Position numbers and translations under genes: made by a program. Positions 4,056 to 64,000 of a DNA stretch of 64,000 nucleotides are shown one piece after another. Each line of letters starts with the position of its first letter. Within the stretch, counting starts at the first letter, position 1. Source of the DNA: an uncultured Thermoleophilia bacterium (lineage in GTDB: Bacteria; Actinomycetota; Thermoleophilia; UBA2241); NCBI GenBank assembly GCA_963741075.1, contig CAVUGS010000003.1, forward strand, positions 101,054 through 165,053, in the 5' to 3' direction. The notes below the pieces were generated by a model, which saw only the letters and a program-made list of their open reading frames with translations, had not been told where the DNA came from and did no database searches.

Positions 4056-4424
4056 ATGCCGAGCGGCGGAGCCACCTCCGGCGACAGACCCGAGCCTCCC
4101 CCAGCGGCGGCGGCCGGCGGCCAGACGGAACGCCGCAACGGCGCCGCCCGGGCCCGCGCCGGCCGCCCGGGCCCCAACGGCGAGGCCGTGCCGGTCGCCG
4201 TCAGCTGGGACGAGCGGGCGCGGCGCCCGGTCGCCTTCGTCTGGCGCCGCCGCACGTACCGCGTCGAGCGCGTCCTCGAGACGTGGGTCCTCGAGACGGG
4301 CTGGTGGCGGGACGACGGCCACGTCAGCCGCTCGTACTGGCGGGTGCGCGCCGGCGGCCGCGTCGTCGACCTGCGCTACGACCGCCTCAGCAAGTCCTGG
4401 GCGCTCGAGCGGGAGATCGGATGA
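4056..4424 (+). CDS. small conserved-looking hypothetical protein (W/R-rich), first gene of the SOS-box unit
   Basis: ATG 4056 is preceded by AGGAG (4046-4050). The product is 122 aa and the stop at 4422-4424 lies 19 nt before the polymerase ATG. The C-terminal half reads VSWDERARRPVAFVWRRRTYRVERVLETWVLETGWWRDDGHVSRSYWRVRAGGRVVDLRYDRLSKSWALE. From memory it resembles a small DUF (DUF6504-like) found near imuB/dnaE2; I cannot verify that here. Confidence 0.6.
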   Translation: MPSGGATSGDRPEPPPAAAAGGQTERRNGAARARAGRPGPNGEAVPVAVSWDERARRPVAFVWRRRTYRVERVLETWVLETGWWRDDGHVSRSYWRVRAGGRVVDLRYDRLSKSWALEREIG

Positions 4425-4443
4425 CCGCGCCCGGAGGACCGAG

Positions 4444-13880: not shown

Positions 13881-15923
<2,043 letters not shown>

Positions 15924-16219
15924 CGCACCCCGCGCGCTCCGCGGAGCGCGTCACTCCTACAGTCCACCGCCGTCGATCCGCCGGCGTTGCCCGTCCCGGC
16001 GACGCGCACGCGGCCCGTCTAGACGCGTGTTCTATGCGCCCCTGAGCCGCGGCGCCCGATGTCATGGCCAGGAGGCCGGAAGACTCTGAGAGAGGAACTT
16101 CCAAGTCGACCTTGACCTTGGCCGGCGGCGCAAAGCGGGGGCTTGCACCGCCGGCCTTCACGTACGCCGGGCGCCGCGAGCCGACGATCGCCGCCGGCCG
16201 CCCCACAGGCCGCCGGGGA

Positions 16220-17523
16220 TCAGTTCGGCCGGTTGTCGATGACGCGCCGGGCCTTGCCCTCGCTGCGCTCGAGCTTGCCCGGCTCGACGAGCTTGACCTT
16301 GGGGCGGACGAGGAGCGCCGAGCGAAGTTCCTCGGTGACTCGGCGCTCGAACGCGCGCAGGTCGTCCATCCAGCCGTCGAAGAGGGTGTCCGTGACCTCG
16401 ACGTGCACCTCGAACGTGTCCAGCCCGTTCTGACGCCCCAGCACGATCTGGTAGAACGGCTCGACGCCCTCGATCTGGAACAGCACGCTCTCGATCGCCG
16501 ACGGGAAGATGTTGACGCCGCTGATGATGAACATGTCGTCGGTGCGGCCGACCACCTTGCCCATGCGGGCCGTCGTGCGCCCGCACGCGCAGCGCTCGCG
16601 GGTGAGCGAGGTGAGGTCGCGGGTGCGGTAGCGCAGCACCGGAGAGCACTCACGCGTGAAGGCGGTGACCACGAGCTCGCCGACCTCGCCGTCGGCGACC
16701 GGCTTGCCGGTCGCCGGGTCCAGGCACTCGGCGAGGAAGTGGTCCTCGGAGATGTGCATGCCGCTGCGGCACTCGCACTCGCCGGCCACGCCGGGGCCCG
16801 TGAGCTCCGTGAGCCCGTAGTTGTCCGTGGCCCTGATCGGCAGCCGGCTCTCGATCTGCGCGCGCATCTCCTCGCTGCAGTGCTCGGCGCCGAACATGCC
16901 CAGGCGCAGGCGCAGCTGCTCGAGCGGCACCTCCCGCCTCTGCGAGCACCTCGCCGATGTAGAGCGCGTAGGACGGCGTGGCGATGAGGATGGTCGTGCC
17001 GAAGTCCTTCATGTACTGGATCTGGCGGGCGGTGTTGCCGGCGCTGATGGGCAGCACCGCCACGCCGGCGCGCTGCAGCCCGTAGTGCAGGCCGAAGCCG
17101 CCGGTGAACATGCCGTAGCCGAAGGCGATCTGGGCGACGTCGCCGTCGTGGGCGCCGGCGGCGACGGCGAGCCGGCACACGAGCTCGGTCCACGTGTCCA
17201 GGTCGGCCCTGGTGTAGCCGCCGACCACCGCCTTGCCGGTGGTGCCGGAGGAGGAGTGGATCTCGACGACCTCGCTCATGGGCACGGCGAACAGGCCGTA
17301 GGGGTAGTTGTCGCGGAAGTCCGTCTTCTCGGTGAACGGCAGGGCCGGCGACGTCGTCCAGGCTGGTGAGGTCGCCGGGCTCGAACCCGGCCGCGCCCAG
17401 CTTGTCGCGGTAGAACGGCACGCGCTCGTACACGCGGGCGAGCATGTCGCGCAGGCGCGGGAGCTGCAGCTCCTCGAGCTGCTCGCGGTCGATGGTCTCG
17501 TGCTGCGCGTCCCAGATCGCCAT
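16220..17523 (-). CDS. paaK: phenylacetate-CoA ligase family (PaaK-like adenylate-forming enzyme); two frame breaks
   Basis: [42 protein letters not shown], then [34 protein letters not shown], then [39 protein letters not shown]. Frame breaks are near 17345 and 16935. Confidence 0.8.
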
Positions 17524-17590
17524 GGTCTCTCGCTTCCTCGCTGCCGTGCCGCAGGCAATCATATCGGGGCGGCGACCGGTGGCCCCCATG

Positions 17591-17606
17591 ATACCCCAGG
17601 GGGTAC
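17591..17606 (+). promoter_or_regulatory. CsoR-type operator-like pseudo-palindrome ATACCCCAGGGGGTAC upstream of copA
   Basis: The G/C-tract inverted repeat TACCCC-N-GGGGTA lies 75-90 nt upstream of the copA GTG. This is the shape of known CsoR operators (copZA/cso type). No csoR gene is visible nearby. Confidence 0.4.
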
Positions 17607-17680
17607 GCATCGTTTGAGCGTGGGAACACTTGTACGCGGCAACGCGGACGCGCCGCCTTGCACGCATCGTCCGGAGCACC

Positions 17681-20163
17681 GTGAGCGAGCACGACACCAC
17701 CATCGAGCTGCCCATCACCGGCATGACCTGCGCCAGCTGCGTGGCGCGTACGGAGAAGGCCATCGGCAAGGTCGCCGGCGTGGACAAGGCCGCCGTCAAC
17801 CTGGCGACCGAGAAGGCGACCGTGACGTTCGACCCCGGCGCAGTCTCGGCCGGGGACCTCGTGGCGGCCGTCGAGGGCGCGGGCTACGGCGTCGTCACCG
17901 CGCAGGAGACGCTGCCGATCATCGGCATGACCTGCGCGAGCTGCGTGAGCCGGGTGGAGAAGGCGCTGCGCATGCCGGCCGGCGTCCTGAAGGCCGACGT
18001 CAATCTGGCGACGGAGAAGGCGACGGTGTCGTACATCCCCGGCCAGGCGAGCTACCGCGACCTGGTGGAGGCCGTGCGCGGCGCCGGCTACGACGTCGTG
18101 GAGCCGGCGCCGGGCACCGGCGAAGAAGGCGCCTCAGGCGGCGGCGGACGCCGAAGAGGCGGCCCGCGCCGCCGCCTACCGCAAGCTCAAGCTGAAGGTC
18201 ACCGTCGGCTTCGTCCTCAGCGTCGTCATCTTCGCCGGCACCATGCAGATGGAGTGGTTCACCTTCCTGCCGGAGTGGATGCACAACGGCTACTTCCTCT
18301 GGGCCCTGGCGAGCGTGGTGCAGTTCTGGGTCGGCTGGCAGTTCTACACCACCGCCTGGTCGGCGCTGAAGCACGGCACGACCACCATGAACACGCTGGT
18401 GGCGCATGGGCTCGTCGGCGGCCTACATCTACAGCGTCCTCGGCGTGCTCTTCCCCGGCGTTCTTCGAGCACCAGGGGCTGGGCGAGCCGATGTACTTCG
18501 ACTCGGCCGCCTTCATCATCACGCTGATCCTGCTCGGGCGGCTGCTCGAGGCGCGCGCCAAGGGCCAGACCGGCGCCGCCATCAAGGCGCTCATCGGCCT
18601 GCAGCCCAAGACGGCGCGCGTCATCCGCGCCGGCGTCGGAGTCCGACGTGCCGGTCGCCCAGGTGCTGGTCGGCGACCTCGTCGTGGTCCGACCGGGCGA
18701 GAAGGTGCCGGTGGACGGCGTGCTCGAGGAGGGCTCCTCGCCGGTCGACGAGTCCATGCTCACCGGCGAGCCGATCCCCGTCGGCAAGCACCCCGGCGAC
18801 GAGGTGATCGGCGCCACCATGAACACCACCGGGTCGTTCACCTTCCGGGCCACCAAGGTCGGCTCCGAGACGGCGCTCGCGCAGATCGTGCGCCTCGTCG
18901 AGCAGGCGCAGGGCTCCAAGCCGCCCATCGCCCGCCTGGCCGACGTCATCGCCGCCTGGTTCGTGCCGGCCGTCATCGTCATCGCCACCGTCACGCTGGT
19001 CGTCTGGCTGGTCTTCGGCCCGTCGCCGGCGCTCAACTACGCGCTGCTCAACTTCGTCGCCGTGCTCGTCATCGCGTGCCCCTGCGCCCTGGGCCTGGCC
19101 ACGCCGACGGCGATCATGGTGGGCACCGGCAAGGGCGCCGAGAACGGCGTGCTCATCCGCGACGGCGCCGCGCTCGAGACGGCGCACAAGCTCAGCACCG
19201 TCGTGCTCGACAAGACGGGCACCATCACCGAGGGCAAGCCGCGGGTGACGGACGTGGTCCTGTTCGGGTCCGGCGACGGGACCGACGGAGACTCCGGCCC
19301 GCACCTGGACAACGCCGGCCTGCTGCGGCTGGTGGCCGGCGCCGAGCGCGGCAGCGAGCACCCGCTGGCCGTGGCGATCCTCGACGCCGCCGACGAACGC
19401 GGGATCGCGGTGCCGCCGGCCACCGGGTTCGAGGCCATCGCCGGCCACGGCATCCGCGCCCAGGTCGACGGCCACACGATCGTCGCCGGCAACGAGCGGC
19501 TCGCCGGCCACGCCGGCGAGCGCGCGGCGGCGCTGGCCGCCGAGGGCAAGACCGTCGTCACCGTCGTCGTGGACGACGAACCGGTCGGGGCGATCGCCAT
19601 CGCCGACACGGTCAAGCCGAGCTCCGCGGCGGCCGTGGCCCGCCTCAAGCAGCTCGGCCTCGACGTCGTCATGCTGACCGGCGACCAGGCGGCGACGGCG
19701 AGAGCCATCGCCGCTCAGGTCGGCATCGAGCGCGTGTTCGCCGAGGTGCTGCCGCGAGCAGAAGGCCTCGGAGATCTCGGCCCTGCAGCAGGACGGCCGC
19801 AGGGTCGCCATGGTCGGCGACGGCATCAACGACGCCCCGGCGCTGGCCCAGGCCGACGTCGGCATCGCCATCGGCACCGGCACGGACGTGGCCATGGAGG
19901 CGAGCGACGTCACGCTCATGTCGGGCGACGTCGGCGGCGTGGCGACGGCGATCGAGCTCTCCCGGGCGACCATCCGCACGGTCAAGCAGAACCTCTTCTG
20001 GGCGTTCGCCTACAACGTGGCCCTGATCCCGCTGGCCGCGGGCGTGTTCTACCCCGCCTTCGGCATCCTGCTGAACCCGATCTACGCGGCCGCGGCGATG
20101 GGCCTGAGCAGCGTCACCGTGGTGACCAACAGCCTGCGGCTGCGGCGGTTCACGGCGAGCTGA
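17681..20163 (+). CDS. copA: copper-translocating P1B-type ATPase with two N-terminal HMA domains; about five +1 frame breaks
   Basis: There are two GMTCASC metal-binding domains, the TM CPC motif ([12 protein letters not shown]), [15 protein letters not shown] and the C-terminal TM pair. The pieces are spread over track ORFs 17630, 18243, 18406, 18648 and 19810. Frame breaks are near 18130, 18400, 18460, 18640 and 19760. Confidence 0.85.
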
Positions 20164-20321: not shown

Positions 20322-20570
20322 GGTCTCACCTCCTTCGCGTGTCGGTGTGTGTCTAGGGTAGCCCGCTTGCAGCGGAAATAAACGATGGTTGTGAACTGGT
20401 TCACGTTTCTCTGTAGCTTCACCTGGCCTCGGCGGTGTCCAATTGGGACAAGCCAGACAGTGAAAATGCCCTCCTCCGTCCATTGTCGCCGTCGACGCGC
20501 CGATGCGAGGATGGAACGGGCCGGGGGCGACCATCGTTTCGCCACCCCACCTTCCATCCGAAGAGGTCTC

Positions 20571-53396: not shown

Positions 53397-54353
53397 ATGA
53401 CTTACGACTCACTGCCGTTCAGCGGCATCGCGACCTTCTTCAAGGCGCCGCTCGTGGCGGCGCCGACGACGGCGGACGCCGACGTCGCCGTCGTCGGCAT
53501 CGGCTGGGACGAAGGCACGACCAGCCGTTCCGGCGCGCGGATGGGGCCTCGCGCCCTGCGCGAGGCCTCCACCATGTACGCCTTCCAGCGCGACGCCGAG
53601 CCCTTCTGGGACGGCGAGGCCGGCGTCGAACTGCTCGGCGGCGTCCGCTGGGCGGACTGCGGCGACGTCGCGCTCGGCCCCATGTGGTCGCCCGAGCGCT
53701 ACCACAACGCGATCGTCGGCAGGCTGCAGCCGATCATGCAGGCCGGCCTCTTCCCCGTCACGCTCGGCGGCGACCACTCCATCGGCTACCCGGTGCTGAA
53801 GGCGCTCTACCAGGCCCGCGGCGGCAAGCCGTTCCACCTGGTGCAGTTCGACACGCACATGGACTACTGGGACGAGGAGGGCGGCTCGCGCTTCTCGCAC
53901 GCCAGCCCCATCATCCGCAGCCACGAGGCGGGCTTCCTCGCGAGCCTCACGCAGTACGGCATCCGCAGCCTGCACACGCCCGGCGACAACATCGCGCTGG
54001 CGAAGAGCCGCGGGGCGCACATCTTCTGGTGCCAGCAGGCGAAGGACATGCTGGTCGAAGACCTCGTCGAGCACCTGCCCAAGGGCGGCGACGTGTACAT
54101 CACGTTCGACATCGACGCCCTCGACCCGGCGATCGCGCCGGGCACCGGCACGCCGGAGCCCGGCGGCTTCACCTACTACGAGGCCAAGGACATCCTGCTC
54201 GGCGTCTGCGCCCGCTGCAACGTGGTCGGCATGGACCTCGTCGAGGTGGCGCCGCAGTACGACGGCCCCGGCCAGGTCACGGCGCTGCACGGCGCCCGGC
54301 TGATCCTCGACACGGTGGGCGCCGCCTTCCGCAGGCGTGCCGCCCTGCAGTGA
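53397..54353 (+). CDS. arginase-family ureohydrolase (agmatinase / guanidino-acid hydrolase)
   Basis: Intact. The Mn-binding motifs GGDHSIGYP, DTHMDYWD and FDIDALDP are present. Confidence 0.85.
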   Translation: MTYDSLPFSGIATFFKAPLVAAPTTADADVAVVGIGWDEGTTSRSGARMGPRALREASTMYAFQRDAEPFWDGEAGVELLGGVRWADCGDVALGPMWSPERYHNAIVGRLQPIMQAGLFPVTLGGDHSIGYPVLKALYQARGGKPFHLVQFDTHMDYWDEEGGSRFSHASPIIRSHEAGFLASLTQYGIRSLHTPGDNIALAKSRGAHIFWCQQAKDMLVEDLVEHLPKGGDVYITFDIDALDPAIAPGTGTPEPGGFTYYEAKDILLGVCARCNVVGMDLVEVAPQYDGPGQVTALHGARLILDTVGAAFRRRAALQ

Positions 54354-54365
54354 GCGGCGCCTGGT

Positions 54366-54740
54366 CTACGCCGCGGCCTTGACCGCCACGGCGGCGTTGA
54401 TGGCCTCCGCCACCGCCGCCGGATCGGCGACCTCGATCACGAGGCGCTCGAAGGGCTCCGCCTCGAGGTCGATCGAGATCGCGTGCTTCGGGTCGTGCAC
54501 GTCCCAGAACTCGTGGCGGCCGTGCACCAGCATCGGTCCGGCCGCGACGGCGTAGTCGAGCAAGGCGTCGGTGCGTCCGGCGCCGAGCCACGGCCCACGC
54601 GAGGAGACGTGCGGGTCGAGGCGCGCGCCCTTCACGTGCTCCAGGGGCACGACGATGCGCTTGCGGAACGTCCAGAGCACGTCCAGGCCCGAGATCGTCA
54701 CGCGGAGGTGCGTGGCGGTGATGTCGACGTGAGCGTTCAT
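54366..54740 (-). CDS. hypothetical protein (124 aa)
   Basis: I chose the internal ATG 54740. The product MNAHVDITATHLRVTISGLDVLWTFRKRIVVPLEHVKG.. looks like a beta-rich, bacterial-PH-like protein. I do not recognise the family. Confidence 0.45.
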   Translation of the reverse strand: MNAHVDITATHLRVTISGLDVLWTFRKRIVVPLEHVKGARLDPHVSSRGPWLGAGRTDALLDYAVAAGPMLVHGRHEFWDVHDPKHAISIDLEAEPFERLVIEVADPAAVAEAINAAVAVKAAA

Positions 54741-55001
54741 GCCGACAGTATTCCCCGCCGCGGCCGGCTGCTGCGGCAATCGTGCGAAGGAGCACCGCCG
54801 CTGCGTTGTGCCGCGTTGACGCAGGTTGCGGAACCGCCGACTTCGGAACGCGGCGGTATCATCAGGGTACGCGCAGGCCAAACGCCGCCTCGCCGCGCGC
54901 GACTGGCCGACCATGCAGCACTACGCCGAGGCCAAGACCGAGGTCGTCGAGGCGATCATCGCGCGGGCCGTCGCCGCACGAGAAGAGGACGAAGACCGGG
55001 C

Positions 55002-55114
55002 GTGACGCCGGAGAGGGCGGGCGGTGGGACTGACCGTGGGGGGACTCCGCCCGCCCCGTCCGGCGTCACGCCGGGGTGACGCGGCCGGCCGGACGGGGGA
55101 GTCCGGCCGGCCGC
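55002..55114. terminator. two tandem long GC hairpins at the 3' end of the hydrogenase/kinase operon
   Basis: Hairpin 1 (55002-55069) has arms GTGACGCCGGA..GGGCGGGCGG and CCGCCCGCCC..TCCGGCGTCAC. Hairpin 2 (55081-55114) is GCGGCCGGCCGGAC-GGGGGA-GTCCGGCCGGCCGC, a perfect 14-bp stem. Hairpin 2 ends 5 nt beyond the kinase stop at 55119. Confidence 0.45.
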
Positions 55115-55118
55115 AGGC

Positions 55119-56575
55119 TCATGCCGGCAGCAGCACGGTGAACACCGAACCCTCGCCCTCGACGCTGGTCGCCTCGAGCCGGCCGCCGGCGCGCTCCACG
55201 AGGCGCTTCACGATCGACAGCCCGAGGCCGTTGCCCTCGAGCTCGCGCGTCTCGGCGCGCTTCTCGCGGAAGAACTCGTCCCAGAGCCGCGCCAGGTTCT
55301 CCTCCCTGATGCCGATGCCGGTGTCGGCCACGTCGAGGCGCAGCCAGCCGTCCTCCACGACGCCGCGCACCGTCACCGTGCCGCGCTCGCGGTTGTACTT
55401 GACCGCGTTGCCGACGAGGTTGCTGAGGACGAGCCGCAGGTCGTCGGGGCGGATGAGCGCCGGCGGCAGGCCGGCGGCGAGGTCGGTCGTCACGGTGACG
55501 CCGCGCTGCACGCCGCGCTCGCGGGCGAGCTCCACGATCTCGTCCAGGACGGGGGCGACCGGGACGAGCTCGGGCTCCTCGCCCTCCGGCGCCTGCTCGC
55601 TGCGCGCCAGCGTCAGCAGGTCGCGGATCAGCTCGACGAGGTTGTCGATGCGGTGGTCGGCGCGGCGCGATCATCGGCAGGTAGGGGTCGAGCTCGTCGC
55701 CGAGGCTCTTGTCGGTGACCACCTCGAGCAGTCCCTTGATGGAGCCCAGCGGGCTCTTGAGCTCGTGCACCATCATGCGGATGAACTTCTGCTTCTCCAT
55801 CGCGAGGCGCCGCACCTCGCTGATGTCGCTGAGCGTGAGGATGCGGCCCCGAGCCTCGCCCGCCGTCGTCGCGGAACGTGACGATGCTCGCCATCCAGGC
55901 CTGCTCGCCGATCTCGAGCTGGCGGACGGTGCGGTCCTTGGCCGGCGCGGCCAGCTGCTCGCAGAGCGGCGCCAGGGCGCCGCCGCCGAGCAGCTCCTGC
56001 GCCGGCCGCATGAGCACGTCGTCCTCGCCGAGCTCGAGCAGCTCGAGCATCGGGGGGTTGGCGAGCACGACGTCGCCGTCCCGGTTGACCACGAGCACGG
56101 CGTCGCGCAGGGAGCTGACGAGCGAGTGGGTCTGGGTCTTCTCCTCGGCGAGGGCGAGCAGGCTCGCCTCGTGCTCGGCGCGCAGGCGCTCGGCCTCCGT
56201 CCGCGCCTGCTTGTGCCGCAGGAGCGTCTCGATCACGCCCTCGAGGTCGTCGGGGCTGAACGGCTTGGGCAGGAAGAAGTCCACGCCCTGCCGCGTCGCC
56301 GCGATGGCCGTGTCGATGTTGGCGTAGGCCGTGATCATGCACACCATGGCGTCGCAGCCCCGCTTCTTCATCGTCTGCAGCAGGCTGAGGCCGTCGGTGT
56401 CGGGCAGGCGGTAGTCGAGCAGGGCGACGTCGTAGTCGCGCTCGTCCAGGGCACGCAGCGCGCCGGCGCCGTCGCCGGCCTCGCCCACGTCGTAGCCCTC
56501 CATCTCGAGGATCGTGCGGATGCCGCTGCGCACGCCGTACTCGTCGTCGACGATGAGGATGCTGCCCTTGCCCAT
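55119..56575 (-). CDS. hybrid REC - PAS - HisKA - HATPase_c sensor kinase; two frame breaks
   Basis: ATG 56575 (RBS GGAGAGGAG). The REC domain has ILIVDDE, VALLDYRLPD, MITAY and LPKPF. A coiled coil follows, then PAS (LRDAVLVVNRDGDVVLANP), then the H-box (MMVHELKSPLGSI), N-box (LVGNAVKYN), G1 (DTGIGI) and G2 (GNGLGLSIV). Frame breaks are near 55850 and 55660. Confidence 0.8.
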
Positions 56576-56600
56576 GGTGGTCTCCTCTCCCGGCCTCGCG

Positions 56601-57029
56601 TCAGACCGCGGCGGGCTCGCCGGCCGGAGCCGCGGCTCCGGCGAGCTCCTCGATCACGGCGAGCACCTGCTTGCCGGTCACCGGCTTGTCCAGGAACCGG
56701 GCGAGCCGGGACCACTCGCGCAGCCCGCCGGCCTCGCCGTCGAAGCGCGTGCCGGTCTCGGCGGCCACGCCGCTGAGCATGACGAGCGGGATGTGGCTCA
56801 GCCGCTCGTCCTTCCCGATGCGGTAGCCGAGCCGGAAGCCGTCGTCCACGTGCTCCATCATCAGGTCGAGGAAGACGATCGCCGGCGTCTCGGTCTCGAG
56901 CAGCGCCAGCGCCGCGTCGGGGGACTCGGCGGTGAGCACGCGGTAGCCGCGGGCCTCCAGGTACAGCTGCTTGCTCTCCAGGAAGTCCCGGTCGTCGTCG
57001 ACGAACAGGACGGTGGTCTGGGTGGTCAT
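56601..57029 (-). CDS. stand-alone receiver (REC-only response regulator), paralogue of 63383-63805
   Basis: Intact. ATG 57029 is in an ATGA overlap with the upstream kinase stop. It has VLFVDDDRD, IVFLDLMM, PLVMLSG and FLDKPV. There is no output domain. Confidence 0.8.
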   Translation of the reverse strand: MTTQTTVLFVDDDRDFLESKQLYLEARGYRVLTAESPDAALALLETETPAIVFLDLMMEHVDDGFRLGYRIGKDERLSHIPLVMLSGVAAETGTRFDGEAGGLREWSRLARFLDKPVTGKQVLAVIEELAGAAAPAGEPAAV

Positions 57030-59080
57030 GGCGTCGCTCCCTTGTCGTCGATCAGCGCGGCCTGCCCGCCCGCGTGGGTGCTGGGGAGCTCCACGTGGAA
57101 GGTCGTGCCGCGATCCGTCTCCGTCTCGAACCAGATCGTGCCGTTGTGCATCTTGACGATGCCGTAGCTGATGGGCAGGCCGAGGCCGGTGCCCTTGCCG
57201 ATGCTCTTGGTCGTGAAGAAGGGCTGGAAGACCTTGTCGCGGGCGCTCTGCGGGATGCCGGCGCCCTCGTCGCTCACGGCCAGGTGGACGCGGCCGCCGC
57301 CCTCGACCTCGTACGCGCTCACGCGCACCGTGCCGTCCCGGCCCTCCATGGCCTCGACCCCGTTCTTGACCAGGTTCACCAGGACCTGGGTCATCTGGTC
57401 GCGGTCGAGGTCGGCGCGCAGGCCGGGCGCCACGTCGACCACGAGGTCGACGACGTGGCCGTTGGGCTCCACCGTCGCCGCCGCGGAGTCGACCGCCCCC
57501 TGCACGACGTCGCGCACGTCCACGCTCTCGACGTGCACGCGGCTCTGCCGCGCGAAGTCGAGCAGGTTGCCGACGATCTTCTTGCAGCGCTCGCTCTCCT
57601 CGGCGACGAGCTTGAGGTCGTGGTCCAGGTCGTCGCGGTCCTTGAGCTTCTTCCCGAGGATGTGCGTGTACAGCAGGATCGTGCTGAGCGGGTTGTTGAG
57701 CTCGTGCGCGACGCCGGCGGCCATCTGGCCCATGCTGGCCAGCTTCTCGGTGTTGATGATGTGGCGGTGGACGTCGCGCATCTCGCTCCACGGCACGTTG
57801 AGCTCGGCGCACACGCGCTCTGCCTGGTCGATCATGAACGGCAGGCACATGGCGTCCTCGGCCATGCCGCAGTGCACGGCGACGGCCTTGGCGCGGCAGG
57901 TCGGGTAGCCGCAGGCGCCGCAGTTCAGCTCGTCCTCGGGGAAGAACTTGTTGGTCCGCGCCAGGATCTCGCGGATCTCGTCCTCGGTCGGCTCCGGCAG
58001 GCGCTGGTCGTCGGGGGTGTAGACGCGGCCGAGCACGAGGCCGGGGAAGCTCGCGGCGAGCGGGTCGGCCGGCTCGGTGCCGGCCTCGCCGGCGAGCGCC
58101 TCGCGGCGCCGGCACTCGGCGACGTACTCGCCGACGCGGCGCTTGCGCAGCAGGCCGGGCTCGGAGGAGCTGATGCCCGGCCCGCAGTAGCAGCCGCGGC
58201 ACATGAGGGCCTCCACGAGCAGGGTCTGGCCCGTGTCGGCCTCACTCAGGCTGTCCAGCACCTCGACGGTCTCGTCGTGGCCGCTGACCACCAGGACGTC
58301 GGGGTCGAGCATGCCGCGGTCCATGCCGGCGGCATCGAGCAGGCCGCCGGGCAGCGGGAACACCCGCGCCCGCCCGGCGGCCGGCTCGTCCCACGCGGCG
58401 TCCGCGGCCTTCGCCGCGTCGACGCCCCTCGCCGCCAGCAGGCGGTGAGCCTCCTGCAGCGTGAGCACCTCGTCGATCACCGGCGGCAGCAGCGGGTCGC
58501 GCGCCTCCGCCTTCTTGGCCACGCACGGGCCGACGAAGACGCAGCGCACGTCGTCGCCGTAGAGCTCCTTCACCGCCAGCGCGGTCGCGATCATCGGGGA
58601 CACGATCGGCACGAGGCGGTCCACCATCTCCGGGTGGTACTTGCGCACGTACTCGGACACCGCCGGGCACGCGGTCGCGATGTGCACGCCGGTCGGGTTC
58701 GCCTCCAGGTGTTCCGCGTAGGCACGGCTCACCAGGTCGGCGCCCTGCGCGACCTCCACGACGTAGTCGAACCCGGCCGCCTTGAAGGCGCCGACGAGCT
58801 GCGCGGCCGGCACGTCGAAGCCCGCCGGGAACGACGGCGCCAGCAGGGCGGCCACCGGGGCGTCCTCCTCGAGCAGCCAGGACGCCCGCTCCAGGCCGCT
58901 CAGGTACGCCTTGGCGTTCTGGGAGCAGACCAGGGTGCAGTTGCCGCAGGCGATGCAGCGCCCGTCGACCACGAACGCCTGGCCGTCCTCGATGCGGATC
59001 GCCTCCGCCGGGCAGTCGCGCACGCAGGTGTAGCACCGGCGGCAGTTCTGCTTGATGGTCGTGATGATCGTGCCGCTCAT
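57026..59080 (-). CDS. ferredoxin (2x4Fe-4S) - [FeFe]-hydrogenase H-domain-like - Cys-rich FeS domain - HisKA/HATPase_c histidine kinase
   Basis: Intact, 684 aa. ATG 59080 lies 6 nt after GGAG. Motifs in order: CRRCYTCVRDCP and CIACGNCTLVCS; H-domain-like IATACPAV, VGPCVAKKAE and EALMCRGCYCGPG; CGACGYPTCRAKAVAVHC; H-box AGVAHELNNPL; N-box LVNLVKNGVEAM; G1 DEGAGIP; F/G2 FQPFFTTK..GTGLGL. Confidence 0.85.
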   Translation of the reverse strand: MSGTIITTIKQNCRRCYTCVRDCPAEAIRIEDGQAFVVDGRCIACGNCTLVCSQNAKAYLSGLERASWLLEEDAPVAALLAPSFPAGFDVPAAQLVGAFKAAGFDYVVEVAQGADLVSRAYAEHLEANPTGVHIATACPAVSEYVRKYHPEMVDRLVPIVSPMIATALAVKELYGDDVRCVFVGPCVAKKAEARDPLLPPVIDEVLTLQEAHRLLAARGVDAAKAADAAWDEPAAGRARVFPLPGGLLDAAGMDRGMLDPDVLVVSGHDETVEVLDSLSEADTGQTLLVEALMCRGCYCGPGISSSEPGLLRKRRVGEYVAECRRREALAGEAGTEPADPLAASFPGLVLGRVYTPDDQRLPEPTEDEIREILARTNKFFPEDELNCGACGYPTCRAKAVAVHCGMAEDAMCLPFMIDQAERVCAELNVPWSEMRDVHRHIINTEKLASMGQMAAGVAHELNNPLSTILLYTHILGKKLKDRDDLDHDLKLVAEESERCKKIVGNLLDFARQSRVHVESVDVRDVVQGAVDSAAATVEPNGHVVDLVVDVAPGLRADLDRDQMTQVLVNLVKNGVEAMEGRDGTVRVSAYEVEGGGRVHLAVSDEGAGIPQSARDKVFQPFFTTKSIGKGTGLGLPISYGIVKMHNGTIWFETETDRGTTFHVELPSTHAGGQAALIDDKGATP

Positions 59081-59091
59081 GCCGGCTCCAG

Positions 59092-60814
59092 TCAGACCCC
59101 GCGACCTTGTCGGGGCTGCGGTCGGTGTAGGTGCGGTGCAGCAGGCGGTGGGAGACCTCGCCCAGCGGACGGCCGAGGAGCTCCTCGTACAGCGCCTGCA
59201 CGTCCGCGTTCTCGTGCGAGCGCCGGGTGCGGGAGCGCCTGTCCACCTCGTAGAGGCGCTCCAGCCGCTCCCTGACCGCCTGCGCGTCGGTGTCGTAGGG
59301 CTGCCCGCCGCCGCCGACGCAGCCGCCCGGGCAGCTCATGACCTCGACGAAGTGCAGGCCGGCCTCGGGAGCCAGCAGGCCGTCCACGGCCTCCTTCACC
59401 CGCCCGAGGCCGTTGACGACGGCCAGGTTCAGCTGCGTCGTCGCCCGCCGTGACCGTGAAGCGGCGCACGCCCTCGGCGCCGCGGGCCTCGGCCACCTTG
59501 GGGCCGCCCTCGAGCTCCTCGCCGGCGACCAGCATGTACGCCGTGCGCACGGCCGCCTCCATGACGCCGCCGCTGCCGGCGAAGAGCCGGCCGGCGCCGG
59601 TCGCCTCGGCGAACGGCGCGTCCAGCGGCGCCTGCTCGGTGAAGCGCGCGAACTCGACGCCGAAGCGGCCCCAGAGGTGCTCGAGCTCGCGCGTGGTGAG
59701 CACGTAGTCCACGTCGCTGAGGTCCTGCGCCTCGAACTTCTTGGCGGTGCACGGCATCAGCGAGACCACCACGAGGCGCTTGCCGGCGAGATCCGCGTGC
59801 TTCGGGTAGATCTCGCGGATCAGCGCGCCGGCCATCTGCTGCGGGCTCTTGCAGGTGGAGAGGTGCGGGATCAGGTCGGGGCGGTGCGTCTCGACGAAGT
59901 TCACCCAGGCGGGAGAGCAGCTGGTGAACATGGGCAGCACGCCGCCGTTCTGGATGCGGTCGAGCAGCTCGGAGCCCTCTTCCATGATCGTGAGGTCGGC
60001 GGCGAAGCTCGTGTCGAACACGGCGTCGAAGCCGACGCGCTTGAGCGCCGCCGCCAGCCGCTCGAGCATGACGCGCACGCCCTCGCTCTTGCTGTGGCCC
60101 TCGAGCAGCGTCGCCGGCACCGCCGGGGCGACCTGCGCGACCACCACGGCGTCGGGATCGGCCAGGGCCGCGACGACGTCGTCCACCTGGTCGCGCTCCA
60201 CGATCGCGCCCGTGGGGCACACACGGGCGCACTGGCCGCAGTACACGCACTCGCTCACGTTGAGGCCGACGGCGAAGCCGGGCGCGACCCGGGTCTTGAA
60301 GCCGCGCCCGGTGAAGTCGATCGCGCCCACCCCCTGCACGTCGTGGCACACGGTGACGCAGCGGCCGCAGAGGACGCACTTGTTGGGGTCGCGCCAGAGC
60401 GCCGGGGAGCTGATGTCCACCGGGTGCTGCTTGACGGCGCCGACGTAGCGGCGCTGGCGCGCGCCGACGTCAGCGGCCAGCGTCGCCAGCTCGCAGTCGC
60501 CGCCGCGCACGCAGGAGAGGCAGTCCTGCGGGTGGCTGGCGATGAGCAGCTCCATGATCGCGCGCCGCGCCTTGAGCACCCGCGGCGTGTGCGTGTGCAC
60601 GGCCATTCCTTCGGCCGCCTCGAGGGTGCAGCTGGTGAGCAGCCGCGGGTTCCCTTCGACCTCCACCACGCAGAGGCGGCAGGACGCCGCCGGGCTCGGC
60701 GCCCAGTCCAGGGAGCAGAGGTGCGGGATGTCGACGCCGGCGCGCCTGGCGGCCCTGAGCACGGTCTCGCCCGCGTGCCGCCTCGATCTCTTTGCCGTTG
60801 ATGGTGAGCTTCAT
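59092..60814 (-). CDS. hydA: [FeFe]-hydrogenase catalytic subunit, HydA/HndD type (M3 plus C-terminal SSU-like domain); about three frame breaks
   Basis: The gene starts at ATG 60814 (MKLTINGKEIEAA). It has a 2Fe-2S domain, a His-ligated cluster (HPQDCLSCVRGGDCE), two ferredoxin clusters (CVLCGRCVTVC, CVYCGQCARVCP) and the H-domain motifs FTSCSPAW, MPCTAKKFEA and VEVMSCPGGCVGGGGQP. The tail is ..LLHRTYTDR. Frame breaks are near 60770 and 59440, and the 3' end is ambiguous near 59100. Confidence 0.85.
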
Positions 60815-60825
60815 GGTCGTTCCTC

Positions 60826-62822
60826 TCAGGCCACGGCCAGGACGGCCTGCTTGGGGCAGGAGTCGGCGCAGGCGCCGCAGCCGGTGCAGCGGTCGACGAT
60901 GATGGAGTGGGCGAACTTGCGCTTGCCGAGGATCGCGCCGCTCGGGCAGTTCTTGGCGCACAGGGCGCAGCCGGTGCAGAGCTCGGGGTCGATGTCGAAC
61001 ACGCGCAGCCCCGTGCAGGCGCCGGCCGGGCAGGCGCTCTCCATGACGTGCGCCTCGTACTCGTCGCGGAAGAAGCGCAGGGTGCTGAGCACCGGGTTCG
61101 CCGCGGACTGGCCGAGGCCGCACAGTGAGGTCTCCTTGACGGTCTCGGCGAGCTCCTCCAGGTGGAGGATGCCGCGGAACCGCTCCAGCCGGCGCAGGTC
61201 GTCGCCGACCGGCCGCTCGGTGAGCTCGCTCAGGATCTCGTGCATGCGCGTCGTGCCCTCGCGGCACGGCGTGCACTTGCCGCAGCTCTCGTCGCGGATG
61301 AACTCCATGAAGAACTTGGCGACGTCGACCATGCAGGAGCGCTCGTCCATGACGACCATGCCGCCGCTGCCCATCATCGCGCCGAGCTCCTGGAGCGTGC
61401 CGTAGTCGGTGGCCACGTCGAGGTACGCGTCGGGGATGCAGCCGCCGCTGGGGCCGCCGATCTGGACGGCCTTGATGTGGTGGCCGGCCGGGGCGCCGCC
61501 GCCGATGTCGTAGACGACCTCGCGCAGCGGGATGCCCACCGGGACCTCGACGAGGCCGGTGTTCTGCACGCGGCCGGAGAGCGCGAAGACCTTGGTGCCG
61601 GCCGCGTCCCCGTACCCGAGGTCACGGAACCACTCGGCGCCCCTGTCCGAGGACCGCCGGCACGTTGGCCAGCGTCTCGACGTTGTTCAGCACGGTCGGG
61701 CAGCCGTGGAGGCCGGAGACCGCGGGATAGGGCGGGCGGGGACGGGGCATGCCGCGCCCGCCCTCGATGCTCGCCAGGATCGCCGTCTCCTCGCCGCACA
61801 CGAAGGCGCCGGCGCCCATCTTGATGGTGATGTCGAAGTCGACGAGGCTGCCGAGGATGTCCCTGCCCAGCAGCCCCGCCGCGCGGCACTGGCGGATGGC
61901 CTCGCCGAGGCGCTCGATCGCCAGCGGGTACTCGGCGCGGCAGTACACGTAGCCCTTGGTCGCGCCGATCGCGTAGGCGGCGATCAGCATGCCCTCGACG
62001 ATGCGGAAGGGGTCGCTCTCGAGCACGGCGCGGTCCATGAACGCGCCGGGGTCGCCCTCGTCGGCGTTGCAGATGAGGTACTTCTGGCTGCGCGGCTGGT
62101 CGTGGGCGACCTTCCACTTCTGCCCGGTCGGGAAGCCGGCCCCGCCGCGGCCGCGCAGGCCGGAGGCGATGACCTCGTCGCAGACCTCGGCCGGGCGTCA
62201 TGGTCGCCAGCGCCCGGGCGGCGGCGCGGAACCCGCCGGCGGCCAGCGCCGCGTCCAGGCTGGCCGGGTCGACGACGCCGCAGTTGGCGAGCACGACCTT
62301 GGTCTGCCGCGCGAAGAACGGCGTCTCGGCGAGCGGCCGCACGCCGCGGTACAGGTCGTCGGGGTCGTCGTAGCGGCCGAGCAGGAAGCGGTTGTGCAGC
62401 TCCCCCTCGCCGAACACGGTCTGCAGGAACTCGTCGATGGTCTCGGGCCCGAGGTCGCAGTAGCTGAGCCGCACGCCGTCGGCGGTCACCAGGTCGACGA
62501 AGACCTCGCGCTGGCAGTAGCCGACGCAGCCGGTCTCGACGATCGGCACGCGCAGGCCGCGCCGCTGGAAGTAGGCGTCGATCTTCTCGATGACGGCGAG
62601 CGCGCCGTTGGCGCGCCCGCAGGTGCCGGCGCCGACGTACAGGAGCATCCCGTCGCCGCCGCGGCGGGCGCGCGCCAGGCGCGCCGCGCGCAGGTCGCGG
62701 CAGGCGTCGTCGTCATGGCAGATCGGGCCGTGGTCGGCGCACGCGATGACGTCCATGCACGGAGTCGCCGCGGTGTGCAGGCAGCGTGTGCAGCACGGGG
62801 TCATGAGCTCGCTGTGGTTCAT
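60826..62822 (-). CDS. hydB: hydrogenase NAD(P)H-binding flavoprotein subunit, HydB/NuoF-like with Cys-rich N-terminal extension; two frame breaks
   Basis: The gene starts at ATG 62822. It has a Cys-rich N-terminus ([30 protein letters not shown]) and a thioredoxin-like 2Fe-2S region ([16 protein letters not shown]). The NuoF core has [36 protein letters not shown] and [12 protein letters not shown]. The C-terminus has 2x4Fe-4S ([24 protein letters not shown]). Frame breaks are near 62195 and 61640. Confidence 0.85.
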
Positions 62823-62894
62823 GCTCGTCTCGATTCTCTGTGATCCATGGCTCTGGTCACGCAGCTTGCTCTCCGGCGCCCCTCCAGGCAGCCG

Positions 62895-63386
62895 TCAGGC
62901 CGCGGCTTCGTCGTCTTCGGCCTCGGCGTCGACCGCGTCCAGCAGAGCGTCCAGCTTCTCCGTGGTGAGGTGGCCGTAGAACTCGCCGTCCAGCTTGATC
63001 ACCGGGGCGATCGAACAGGCGCCCAGGCACGCGACGCTGACGACGGTGTAGCGGCCGTCGGCCGAGTTGCCGTCGTCCCGCAGCTTCAGCCGCCGCTTCA
63101 GGTGCTGGGCGAGCGCGAGGCTCTGCTTGACGTGGCACGCCGTGCCGCGGCAGACCTCGACCACGTGCTCGCCCAGCGGAGCGAAGCGGAACTGGTTGTA
63201 GAACGTGGCGACGCCGTAGATGCGGCTGACCGGCGTCTCCAGGGCCTCGGCCACCAGGACCATCGCCTCGGTCGAGATGAAGCCCTCCTCGGCCTGGATC
63301 TCCTGCAGCAGCGGGATCATCTGCTCGCGCGTGAGCTGTTCCCTGCGCCCGGCGACGATGGCTTCGGCGGTGGTCACGGCGGTCAC
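62895..63386 (-). CDS. hydC: hydrogenase 2Fe-2S subunit, HydC/NuoE-like
   Basis: GTG 63386 is in a GTGA overlap with the upstream receiver stop. It has IPLLQEIQAEEGFIS, VEVCRGTACHV and VACLGACSIAPV (the NuoE CxxxxC..CxxxC pattern). Confidence 0.8.
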   Translation of the reverse strand: MTAVTTAEAIVAGRREQLTREQMIPLLQEIQAEEGFISTEAMVLVAEALETPVSRIYGVATFYNQFRFAPLGEHVVEVCRGTACHVKQSLALAQHLKRRLKLRDDGNSADGRYTVVSVACLGACSIAPVIKLDGEFYGHLTTEKLDALLDAVDAEAEDDEAAA

Positions 63387-63805
63387 GCGCCCTTCGCGAC
63401 GGCGGCCTCGTCCGCGGCCAGCAGCTCGGCGATCGCCGCGGCGAGGTCGGCCAGCTTGACCGGCTTCTCGAAGAACTTGGCGGCCGGCCATTCGCGGTAC
63501 ATCATCGGCTCGAAGATGTGCGTCTTGGTCTCGAGCTCCTTGGTGAAGCCGCTCATGATGATGACCGGGATGCGCTCGGTCTCCGGCTCGTCGCGCAGCT
63601 TGTAGGCCACGTTGAAGCCGTCGGTGTCGTAATCCATCATGATGTCGAGCACCACGAGGTCGGGGCGCCGCTCGGCGAGCCGCTCGCGCGCCTCGATGCC
63701 GCTGTGGGCGGTGTCCACGTCGTAGCCGCGGGCCTCCAGGAACGCCTTGACGCTGGCGACCAGGTCGCGGTCGTCGTCCACCACCAGGATGCGCTTGGCC
63801 TTCAT
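63383..63805 (-). CDS. stand-alone receiver (REC-only response regulator), first gene of the hydrogenase operon
   Basis: Intact. ATG 63805 is preceded by GAGGAGGAG. It has ILVVDDDRD, LVVLDIMM, PVIIMSG and FFEKPV. There is no output domain. Confidence 0.8.
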   Translation of the reverse strand: MKAKRILVVDDDRDLVASVKAFLEARGYDVDTAHSGIEARERLAERRPDLVVLDIMMDYDTDGFNVAYKLRDEPETERIPVIIMSGFTKELETKTHIFEPMMYREWPAAKFFEKPVKLADLAAAIAELLAADEAAVAKGA

Positions 63806-63874
63806 GACTCTCCTCCTCTGTTCCGCCGCGTACTCGGCATCCGCCGGTACGAGCTGTTTAGTTACCGTCTTCAC

Positions 63875-63890
63875 AGTGAAATCGTTCACA
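63875..63890 (-). promoter_or_regulatory. Crp/Fnr-family-like site TGTGA-ACGATT-TCACT in the AT-rich operon upstream region
   Basis: The site matches TGTGA-N6-TCACA at 9 of 10 positions and is centred about 77 nt upstream of ATG 63805. It overlaps a direct repeat of TTCACAGT (plus strand, 63870 and 63886). Confidence 0.35.
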
Positions 63891-63939
63891 GTAGTCGCGA
63901 AAAAAACACAGCTTCGACTCGTCTGCCGATACCCTGGTC

Positions 63940-64000
63940 TCACGCCGTCATCCCCTCCGCCGGCTCGCCCGGCTCGCTCGACGATGCCTGCGCCTCGGCC
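63940..64000 (-). CDS. 3' end of an unidentified upstream gene (runs off the window)
   Basis: The minus-strand reading ..AEAQASSSEPGEPAEGMTA* has its stop at 63940-63942. It is too short to classify. Confidence 0.2.
   Translation of the reverse strand, partial: AEAQASSSEPGEPAEGMTA

Follow-up and report, generated by a model that had tools for sequence, protein, structure and literature searches.

A conserved eight-gene array joining Rex, a HydABC-type [FeFe]-hydrogenase and a putative kinase-fused hydrogenase-like sensor in an uncultured Thermoleophilia bacterium

The window analysed here is a stretch of 64,000 nucleotides (nt) from the genome of an uncultured Thermoleophilia bacterium (assembly GCA_963741075.1, contig CAVUGS010000003.1, positions 101,054 to 165,053), and the system in question is a minus-strand block of genes near its end that encodes a predicted [FeFe]-hydrogenase, two histidine kinases (HK1 and HK2) and two stand-alone receivers (REC1 and REC2). 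We read the locus as one copy of a conserved, laterally spread operon of eight genes, rex-REC1-hydC-hydB-hydA-HK1-REC2-HK2, under two-tier control, and consider this reading probable, with some reserve. The hydCBA genes would encode a cytoplasmic, NADH-linked [FeFe]-hydrogenase of the HydABC type, whose nearest kin are the electron-bifurcating/confurcating enzymes. In the first tier Rex would bind at TGTGAA-N4-TTCAC, upstream of REC1, and in relatives also at another site ahead of rex, and would release the operon when NADH/NAD+ rises. The second tier, to which domain content and conserved ligands point, would start from an H-cluster in HK1 whose redox state is set by H2 and is passed by a C-terminal [4Fe-4S] cluster to the kinase core, made up of the dimerisation/histidine-phosphotransfer and catalytic domains (DHp/CA). 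The likeliest phosphate route would lead from HK1 to the receiver at the N-terminus of HK2, by which HK2 is gated, and from HK2 and/or HK1 to REC1 and REC2. REC2 would then act on or with HydABC, controlling it by protein-protein contact or serving as a phosphate sink specific to the hydrogenase.

Scanning the GTDB species representatives yielded 80 related loci, all from metagenome-assembled genomes (MAGs), which were annotated by tblastn with the proteins of the window. Gene order, which the original prediction had proposed as a check, proved strongly conserved: the exact Rex-REC1-HydC-HydB-HydA-HK1-REC2-HK2 array is found in 57 of the 80 loci, at least three more carry the full array plus a second hydCBA after HK2, and 12 are collinear but interrupted by contig ends. 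HK1 identity to the window ranges from 63 to 93% in loci labelled Actinomycetota (Thermoleophilia, Gaiellales), from 52 to 63% under Deltaproteobacteria-type labels (Syntrophales, Syntrophobacterales, Myxococcota) and from 54 to 57% in Acidobacteriota-labelled loci. Because the array spans three phylum-level label groups, the cassette is evidently a unit that is conserved and has spread laterally, and it is not peculiar to actinobacteria; the original prediction, which spoke of an actinobacterial-type genome, was too narrow in view of its presence in MAGs labelled Deltaproteobacteria/Myxococcota and Acidobacteriota. Relatives of HK1 number thousands in the protein collection, the top matches being 63-95% identical and from Thermoleophilia MAGs. 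No named isolate appears among the matches listed for HK1 and a distant orthologue, all of which are MAGs or metagenomes. In one Polyangiaceae-labelled locus (L050; 5311-5619) REC1 is missing between rex and hydC, and the remaining seven genes are retained.

The coding block runs without interruption from 63805 to 55119, as judged from the listing of open reading frames (ORFs) and a frame plot of G+C at third codon positions (GC3). The seven proteins of the block were obtained by reading three frames at each phase change, with one base removed or added (Table 1). Junctions are tight. The stop codon of REC1 overlaps the GTG start of hydC (GTGA), the ATG of REC2 overlaps the stop codon of HK1 (ATGA), and the remaining gaps measure 72 nt (hydC/hydB), 11 nt (hydB/hydA), 11 nt (hydA/HK1) and 25 nt (REC2/HK2); spacing is equally tight in locus L002. 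Frame-corrected reading and Pfam thus bore out the content, order, strand and junctions that had been predicted for these seven genes, and folding likewise upheld the two long hairpins after HK2, where the transcript probably ends. The genes of the proposed seven-gene unit are real; its eighth member, rex, whose gene ends at 63940, had been overlooked. A simple scan of positions 54300-64000 found no sigma-70 match and no internal terminator, and is little informative at 72% G+C. Its sole terminator-like match, at 63929-63914, is weak (a stem of 5 bp) and precedes the Rex operator on the upstream side; the scan misses the double hairpin of HK2 because no T run follows.

Table 1. Features of the array and its borders (positions in the window)
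Feature	Position	Strand	Description
rex 3' end	63940..64000	(-)	C-terminus ...AEAQASSSEPGEPAEGMTA*; matches the Rex C-terminus of L001; remainder of the gene outside the window
Rex operator-like palindrome	63874..63891	(-)	CTGTGAACGATTTCACTG; 68 nt upstream of the REC1 ATG
REC1	63383..63805	(-)	Stand-alone receiver, 140 aa; Pfam Response_reg, E = 2.8e-19
hydC	62895..63386	(-)	NuoE-like [2Fe-2S] subunit; Pfam 2Fe-2S_thioredx, E = 1.2e-44
hydB	60826..62822	(-)	NuoF-like FMN/NADH subunit with C-terminal 2x[4Fe-4S] domain and Cys-rich N-terminal extension; Pfam Complex1_51K, NADH_4Fe-4S and Fer4
hydA	59092..60814	(-)	H-cluster subunit, HydABC type; Pfam Fe_hyd_lg_C (E = 5e-78) and Fe_hyd_SSU
HK1	57026..59080	(-)	Intact ORF, 684 aa; predicted HydS-type sensory module fused to HisKA-HATPase_c
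REC2	56601..57029	(-)	Stand-alone receiver, 142 aa; Pfam Response_reg, E = 1.7e-13
HK2	55119..56575	(-)	REC-PAS-HisKA-HATPase_c kinase; Pfam Response_reg, PAS_4, HisKA and HATPase_c
Double hairpin	54996..55115	(-)	Two long GC-rich hairpins without U tract, 3' of the HK2 stop; fold -102 kcal/mol, z = -8.2

As the sequence stands, hydB, hydA and HK2 are not open and require seven single-base corrections: two extra bases in hydB (~62191 and 61638), three indels in hydA (~60769, 59439 and ~59100) and two extra bases in HK2 (~55861 and 55665). The hydA stop codon (59094-59092) falls in frame only once one of these indels is corrected. Six of the seven could be aligned to related loci, which differ by exactly one base at each; near the hydA stop (~59100) the window is short of one base, and at the other aligned sites it has an extra one. 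For the hydA site near 59439 no alignment to relatives was obtained. Taken as real, the shifts would turn the operon into a decaying pseudogene cluster, a view that could draw on their concentration in three of the seven genes and on the loss of hydCBA in related lineages, including one whose HK1 is 93% identical (L001). However, Viterbi segmentation by codon-position G+C placed ~45 frame changes without stop codons over the 64 kb, nearly all of them in the direction of one extra base, and tblastn with proteins of relatives found split frames in methionyl-tRNA synthetase (MetRS), ribose-phosphate pyrophosphokinase (Prs) and TatD. Example sites are ~49550 (MetRS), ~43885 (Prs), ~48700 (TatD) and 4418-7169 (DnaE-like). 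On either side of the shifts the coding signal (GC3 near 1.0) and residue conservation are intact. Since the ~45 similar shifts occur throughout the window and include the essential genes for MetRS and Prs, we attribute the seven operon indels to sequencing or assembly errors and not to biology, the window as a whole being an error-prone assembly or a sequence corrupted in some other way; pseudogenisation was rejected on the same grounds and strikes us as very improbable indeed. Among the nearest public relatives, many are MAGs that have long contigs.

The predicted regulatory step with the best support is control of transcription by Rex in response to NADH/NAD+, to which a conserved gene and conserved operators point. 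The window holds the last 19 codons of rex, from 63999 down to the stop codon at 63942-63940, and a gene with the Rex families PF06971 and PF02629 lies directly upstream of REC1 in L001, L002 and nearly all related loci. The palindrome CTGTGAACGATTTCACTG agrees with the Rex consensus TTGTGAANNNNTTCACAA (quoted in PMC5317091) at 11 of its 14 specified bases, and a one-mismatch search of the window returned this operator and one other site (20390-20405), with 0.02 expected by chance. The promoter block reads, in order, T7 tract, operator and GGTAACTA; across the Thermoleophilia loci it forms an invariant block of T7 tract, ACTGTGAA-N4-TTCACTGTGAA and GGTAAC(T)A. Operator-like sites with at least 11 of the 14 bases stand between rex and REC1 in 51 of 68 loci and upstream of rex in 52 of 68. 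The locus therefore combines a gene for Rex, a repressor with a winged-helix N-domain and a Rossmann NADH domain, with a near-consensus operator in the promoter, as expected of a Rex regulon, and in other systems operons for bifurcating hydrogenases are known or predicted to be controlled by Rex (PMC5317091, PMC10084766). The original prediction had denied the signalling genes of the unit any DNA-binding output. This holds for the receivers; it overlooked a conserved Rex repressor at the window edge, with an operator inside 55119-63890. At the window edge, beyond which a DNA-binding response regulator was to be looked for, stands the conserved rex; Rex is not a response regulator, and the case foreseen did not literally arise. 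The other palindrome, TGTGAACTGGTTCACG at 20390-20405, is intergenic, follows a P-type ATPase gene and may mark another member of the Rex regulon.

The hydrogenase itself has, by Pfam, the three subunits of a HydABC enzyme (group A3/A6): HydC, HydB and a HydA with an N-terminal Fe-S domain and an H-domain, the Pfam set of HydA also including Fer2_4, NADH-G_4Fe-4S_3 and Fer4. The best PDB match of HydA is 8a6t_A, and the solved relatives 8a6t_A and 7p5h_A are bifurcating HydA structures. Motifs L2 (MPCTAKKFE, pattern MPCxxKxxE) and L3 (EVMSCPGGCVGGGGQP, pattern ExMxCxxGCxxGGGxP) are canonical. L1 reads TSCSPAW instead of the canonical TSCCPxW (residues 297-303, window ~59906-59926, minus strand), and its Ser aligns gap-free to the second Cys of 8a6t_A and 7qv7_D. 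This second Cys we take to be C300 in CpI numbering, a ligand of the [4Fe-4S] part of the H-cluster. Frame-corrected HydA scored 696.6 bits against the NCBIfam group A6 model NF040763, narrowly under the cut-off of 765. Because of the Ser variant in L1 we do not call the enzyme a motif-defined member; judged by its sequence, it is a close relative of the HydABC bifurcating hydrogenases with a variant L1. Electron bifurcation/confurcation with NAD(H) and ferredoxin would fit the subunit architecture. The only mention of a TSCSPxW-type variant that we found concerns the trimeric hydrogenases of Melainabacteria (PMC3787301). Some surveys demand strict L1-L3 motifs (PMC6085437); such surveys would drop the HydA TSCSPxW clade, and the conserved motif suggests that they have skipped the clade.

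Two observations on the subunits may be added. The N-terminus of HydB (window 62650-62822) contains a Cys/His-rich stretch of ~50 residues, CCxxCxH...C...C..H...C.H...C, without a Pfam match, and a thioredoxin-like segment comes after it. In the Myxococcota-labelled loci L055, L056, L059 and L072 the second hydCBA (40-47% identical) lies directly downstream of HK2, at ~14000-18700 in locus coordinates, and the signalling genes thus sit between two hydrogenases. At least three of the second HydA copies (L056, L059 and L072) have TSCSPGW.

HK1 is the candidate H2 sensor. Pfam assigns it Fer4, Fe_hyd_lg_C (E = 1.7e-39), the FeS family PF04060, HisKA and HATPase_c, and the putative sensory module consists of an N-terminal 2x[4Fe-4S] domain (C13/16/19/23 and C42/45/48/52), an H-domain and a C-terminal Cx2Cx4Cx16C cluster (C387-x2-C390-x4-C395-x16-C412). 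In an alignment to solved group A enzymes, CpI C299, C300, M353, C355, K358, C499 and C503 correspond to A137, C138, G184, C186, K189, C294 and C297 of HK1. All sixteen Fe-S cysteines (8 + 4 + 4) and H459 are invariant in 82-83 orthologues; over the same set, position 137, which aligns with the proton-relay residue C299, is A, T, S or P and never Cys, and position 184 is always Gly. The H-domain that had been predicted for the 57026-59080 kinase is thereby corroborated by Pfam, alignment and invariant ligands. Replacement of C299 and M353 is a hallmark of group C/HydS enzymes, as in TmHydS and TamHydS (PMC8163306), and HK1 shares it together with the retained Fe-S/H-cluster cysteines. Pfam found no PAS domain in HK1, and HisKA follows the Fe-S cluster directly. 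For these two reasons we class HK1 not as an M2f HydS but as a variant fused to a kinase; in its gene context it is similar to the 'C3' bfuT with a kinase domain (PMC11406978). A sequence search of the PDB with HK1 returned group A hydrogenases only and no HydS-type structure.

What HK1 reports might instead be the cellular redox state, the state of ferredoxin, O2 or Fe-S status, read through its clusters whether or not a [2Fe] subsite is present; it would then not sense H2 at all. The signalling mechanism of characterised HydS enzymes is still unresolved, some group C1 sequences are without recognisable H-cluster motifs (PMC11406978), and no maturase genes were seen near the locus. These points lend the idea some weight, but in the 82-83 orthologues neither the four H-cluster cysteines nor the Lys that corresponds to CpI K358 ever vary, and at the C299 and M353 positions HK1 has the substitutions of TmHydS, which binds an H-cluster and reacts with H2 (PMC8163306, PMC10055695). 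We regard a sensor of this other kind as unlikely.

All three receivers contain the acidic pocket, phospho-Asp, Ser/Thr and Lys, conserved over ~70-80 orthologues; in REC1, D10/D11/D54 are invariant (69-70 orthologues) and S85 and K114 conserved. The phospho-His residues, H459 in HK1 and H270 in HK2, are conserved across orthologues as well, and the set has the marks of classical two-component proteins. Pfam detected no helix-turn-helix or enzymatic output domain in any of the three receivers. Canonical receiver residues and missing output domains had both been predicted correctly. A multi-step His-Asp-His-Asp phosphorelay, in contrast, gains no support: no family of the histidine-phosphotransfer (HPt) type was found in the seven proteins (Pfam, E <= 0.01), and the layout of two kinases and three receivers looks more like a kinase cascade or a branched two-component network. 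There is no dedicated NCBIfam family for HK1, REC1, REC2 or HK2. The HK1 core comes nearest to AtoS/ZraS, and AtoC, NtrX and NtrC are among the four top matches of the HK2 receiver. The HK2 core comes nearest to PnpS/PhoR/WalK, and the receivers most similar to REC1 and REC2 are PleD/PhoB/DivK-like. These resemblances suggest a wiring in which HK1 would signal to the HK2 receiver, and HK2 to REC1 and REC2.

The link between REC2 and the hydrogenase comes from lineages in which the latter is gone. Five loci, L001 (= L041), L034, L035, L048 and L040, are without hydCBA and have Rex, REC1, HK1 and HK2, all intact. L001, which is syntenic with the window downstream, is without exactly the segment that corresponds to window 59131-63332. 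A neighbour-joining tree of HK1 places each of the five as sister to, or nested among, full-array loci, and hydCBA has therefore, as far as the tree can tell, been lost independently at least five times. REC2 is cleanly absent in three of these five lineages, and in L001 an in-frame internal deletion has removed its phospho-Asp region; HK1, which lies between hydA and REC2, is intact in all five. Among hydCBA-positive loci, REC2 is present in 61 of 61 that could be judged (61/0 versus 2/4; Fisher p = 2e-5, a value that carries no phylogenetic correction, reflects four events and counts the ambiguous L053 within the '2'). Because REC2 was lost or inactivated in four of the five hydCBA losses while HK1 stayed intact, the simplest reading is that REC2 is useful only when HydABC is present, and that it may act on the enzyme or as a hydrogenase-specific sink. 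Of the two end-points that had been proposed for the signal, the hydrogenase itself or an unlinked regulator, the first gains indirect support from this co-loss. Rex, REC1, HK1 and HK2 would have a further role that is independent of the adjacent hydrogenase.

Two candidates from the same comparison were rejected. Relaxed selection on HK1 after loss of hydCBA would be expected to raise the ratio of nonsynonymous to synonymous substitution rates (dN/dS); pairwise dN/dS in comparisons with L001 is 0.14-0.20, in the same range as for other loci, and pairwise values could mask recent relaxation. L053 was set aside as an additional deletion event, its first ORF looking chimeric at a contig end. In this ORF (4-1227) an OmpR-type receiver is followed by the C-terminal half of HydA, starting shortly ahead of TSCSPGW; the ORF is either an assembly chimera or a genuine receiver-H-domain fusion.

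Explanations diverge on where the network ends. The real output could be transcriptional, through an unlinked DNA-binding response regulator (e.g. of the NtrC/AtoC type), with REC1 and REC2 as sinks, shuttles or modulators and HydABC untouched post-translationally. The HK1 core is NtrB/AtoS/ZraS-like, and the partners of such kinases are usually sigma-54 activators; known [NiFe] H2 sensors of HydDB group 2b end on a DNA-binding regulator (PMC5037454); and Rex, REC1, HK1 and HK2 outlast the deletion of hydCBA, so that the module must have a target beyond the neighbouring enzyme. This explanation is, however, met by the finding that no DNA-binding response regulator is encoded in the 64-kb window or within 10 kb in ~80 loci of three phylum-level groups, and it leaves the specific disappearance of REC2 with hydCBA unexplained. 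We hold it to be a serious alternative that is nonetheless somewhat unlikely. A different proposal is that the stand-alone receivers, REC1 above all, act on Rex, so that Rex-dependent transcription answers NADH/NAD+ and H2 jointly. In its favour, rex adjoins REC1 in nearly every locus, both genes are kept with HK1 and HK2 in all five clear hydCBA-less lineages, and the operators are placed ahead of rex, REC1 or both. A fusion of rex with a REC gene, or any other direct link, did not turn up, though, and L050 has everything else without REC1. We know of no precedent for receiver control of Rex, and judge this proposal quite improbable. Bolder still would be a network that ends on proteins and not on DNA, in which phosphorylated REC2 gates the activity or direction of HydABC, REC1 couples the H2 signal to Rex, and the Ser-variant HydA clade is functionally distinct and needs dedicated control. 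This we offer as a conjecture, and a rather doubtful one. If it were true, one operon would integrate H2 partial pressure and NADH/NAD+ at the levels of enzyme and promoter.

Several points weigh against the two-tier operon that we favour, in addition to the limits of the Fisher table. The hydCBA-less locus L040 keeps an intact REC2. The L1 Ser occurs in 69 of 72 HydA orthologues, and catalytic competence is not assured. No HydEFG maturases are encoded in the 64-kb window. The pairing of kinases with receivers draws on weak family resemblance and amounts to a weak hint. A Rosetta-stone search for fusion proteins of REC1 connected it neither to HydC nor to Rex, yielding only stand-alone orthologues (140-160 aa) and unrelated multi-receiver proteins. 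A DNA-binding response regulator may be encoded elsewhere in the genome. Finally, that the genes are co-transcribed, that Rex binds, that H2 is sensed and that phosphate passes at each step are inferences from sequence.

The rest of the window is housekeeping. Downstream of the operon, on the opposite strand, lie genes for an arginase, an aminotransferase and an AsnC regulator, and further on those for MetRS, TatD, RsmA, IspE, GlmU and Prs. Elsewhere Pfam identifies a PknB-like kinase, a REC-MshEN-T2SSE ATPase, a phenylacetate-CoA-ligase-like enzyme and Fur-ZnuA, and DnaE, AccC, a P-type ATPase, enolase, Mfd and others were read by eye from the translations. The receiver-MshEN-T2SSE gene (13900-15920, plus strand) is intact and predicted to encode a PilB/GspE-like secretion or pilus ATPase under response-regulator control.

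The mechanism by which putative sensory [FeFe]-hydrogenases transfer their signal is still called unresolved (PMC10084766, PMC13104023), and for bifurcating hydrogenases a joint control by Rex and HydS has been put forward, its mechanism being 'yet to be elucidated' (PMC10084766). A kinase-fused sensor with candidate receivers alongside would make H2-dependent autophosphorylation and phosphotransfer measurable by routine assays, and the cassette could become a tractable model for H2 sensing in bacteria. That REC2 and hydCBA were repeatedly lost together is a specific and falsifiable pointer to post-translational control of an electron-bifurcating-type enzyme. Among MAGs from anoxic soil, sediment and digesters (Thermoleophilia, Syntrophales/Syntrophobacterales, Myxococcota and Acidobacteriota labels) the cassette is abundant, and complete MAG chromosomes such as OY764159.1 and OY761556.1 carry it; some of the labelled lineages are associated with syntrophy, and the cassette may bear on the tuning of H2 release there.

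Networks with two kinases and several output-less receivers that work through protein contacts or as phosphate sinks are known from Myxococcus (RedCDEF) and Caulobacter (DivJ/PleC-DivK). Their inputs and targets are unrelated to those of the system in the window, and the comparison covers generic two-component domains. The [NiFe] systems HoxBC-HoxJ-HoxA and HupUV-HupT-HupR (HydDB group 2b) follow the same logic, from a hydrogenase-like H2 sensor through a kinase to control of a hydrogenase, but their metal centre is unrelated, sensor and kinase are separate proteins, and the output is an NtrC-type DNA-binding regulator, whereas no DNA-binding receiver is linked here. Closer in architecture are TmHydS and TamHydS (group C HydS of type M2f, and group D, respectively), which share with HK1 the 2x[4Fe-4S] domain, the four-Cys H-domain and the Cx2Cx4Cx16C cluster; TmHydS also has Gly for Met353, and its proton-relay Cys299 is replaced, as it is in HK1 (there by Ala) (PMC8163306). 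The HydS gene adjoins that of a HydABC-type hydrogenase, as HK1 does (PMC8163306). TmHydS ends in a PAS domain and TamHydS is without a signalling domain, whereas HK1 is fused to a complete HisKA-HATPase_c core with likely receivers alongside.

Parts of the arrangement have been described before, and the novelty claimed in the original prediction shrinks accordingly. HydDB lists group C1 as 'histidine kinase-linked (putative)' (PMC5037454), and a 2024 survey introduced 'bfuT', a group C3 hydrogenase with a PAS or His-kinase domain beside BfuABC, which sometimes lies directly downstream of bfuA, as in Caldithrix (PMC11406978). In Hydrogenedentota and Calditrichota, bfuT is, like HK1, a kinase-bearing H-domain gene immediately downstream of the HydABC-type catalytic gene, and it is a proposed regulator of H2 production or consumption (PMC11406978). 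Descriptions of bfuT and of HydDB C1 end at the sensor gene, whereas receivers, a second kinase and Rex belong to the unit described here. In Caldithrix abyssi, Cabys_3675-3679 (Rex-hydC-hydB-hydA plus one gene), with the candidate Rex site cTGTGAATCAATTCACAt, is predicted to form a single NADH-responsive operon (PMC5317091). As in the window, the Rex gene lies directly upstream of the hydrogenase operon and a Rex site is present; the operon has five genes versus eight, there is no REC1 between rex and hydC, and REC2 and the REC-PAS kinase are not described. New relative to the literature found are the fixed set of eight genes, in which REC1 separates rex from hydC and REC2 and the REC-PAS kinase follow downstream, and likewise the joint loss of REC2 and hydCBA.

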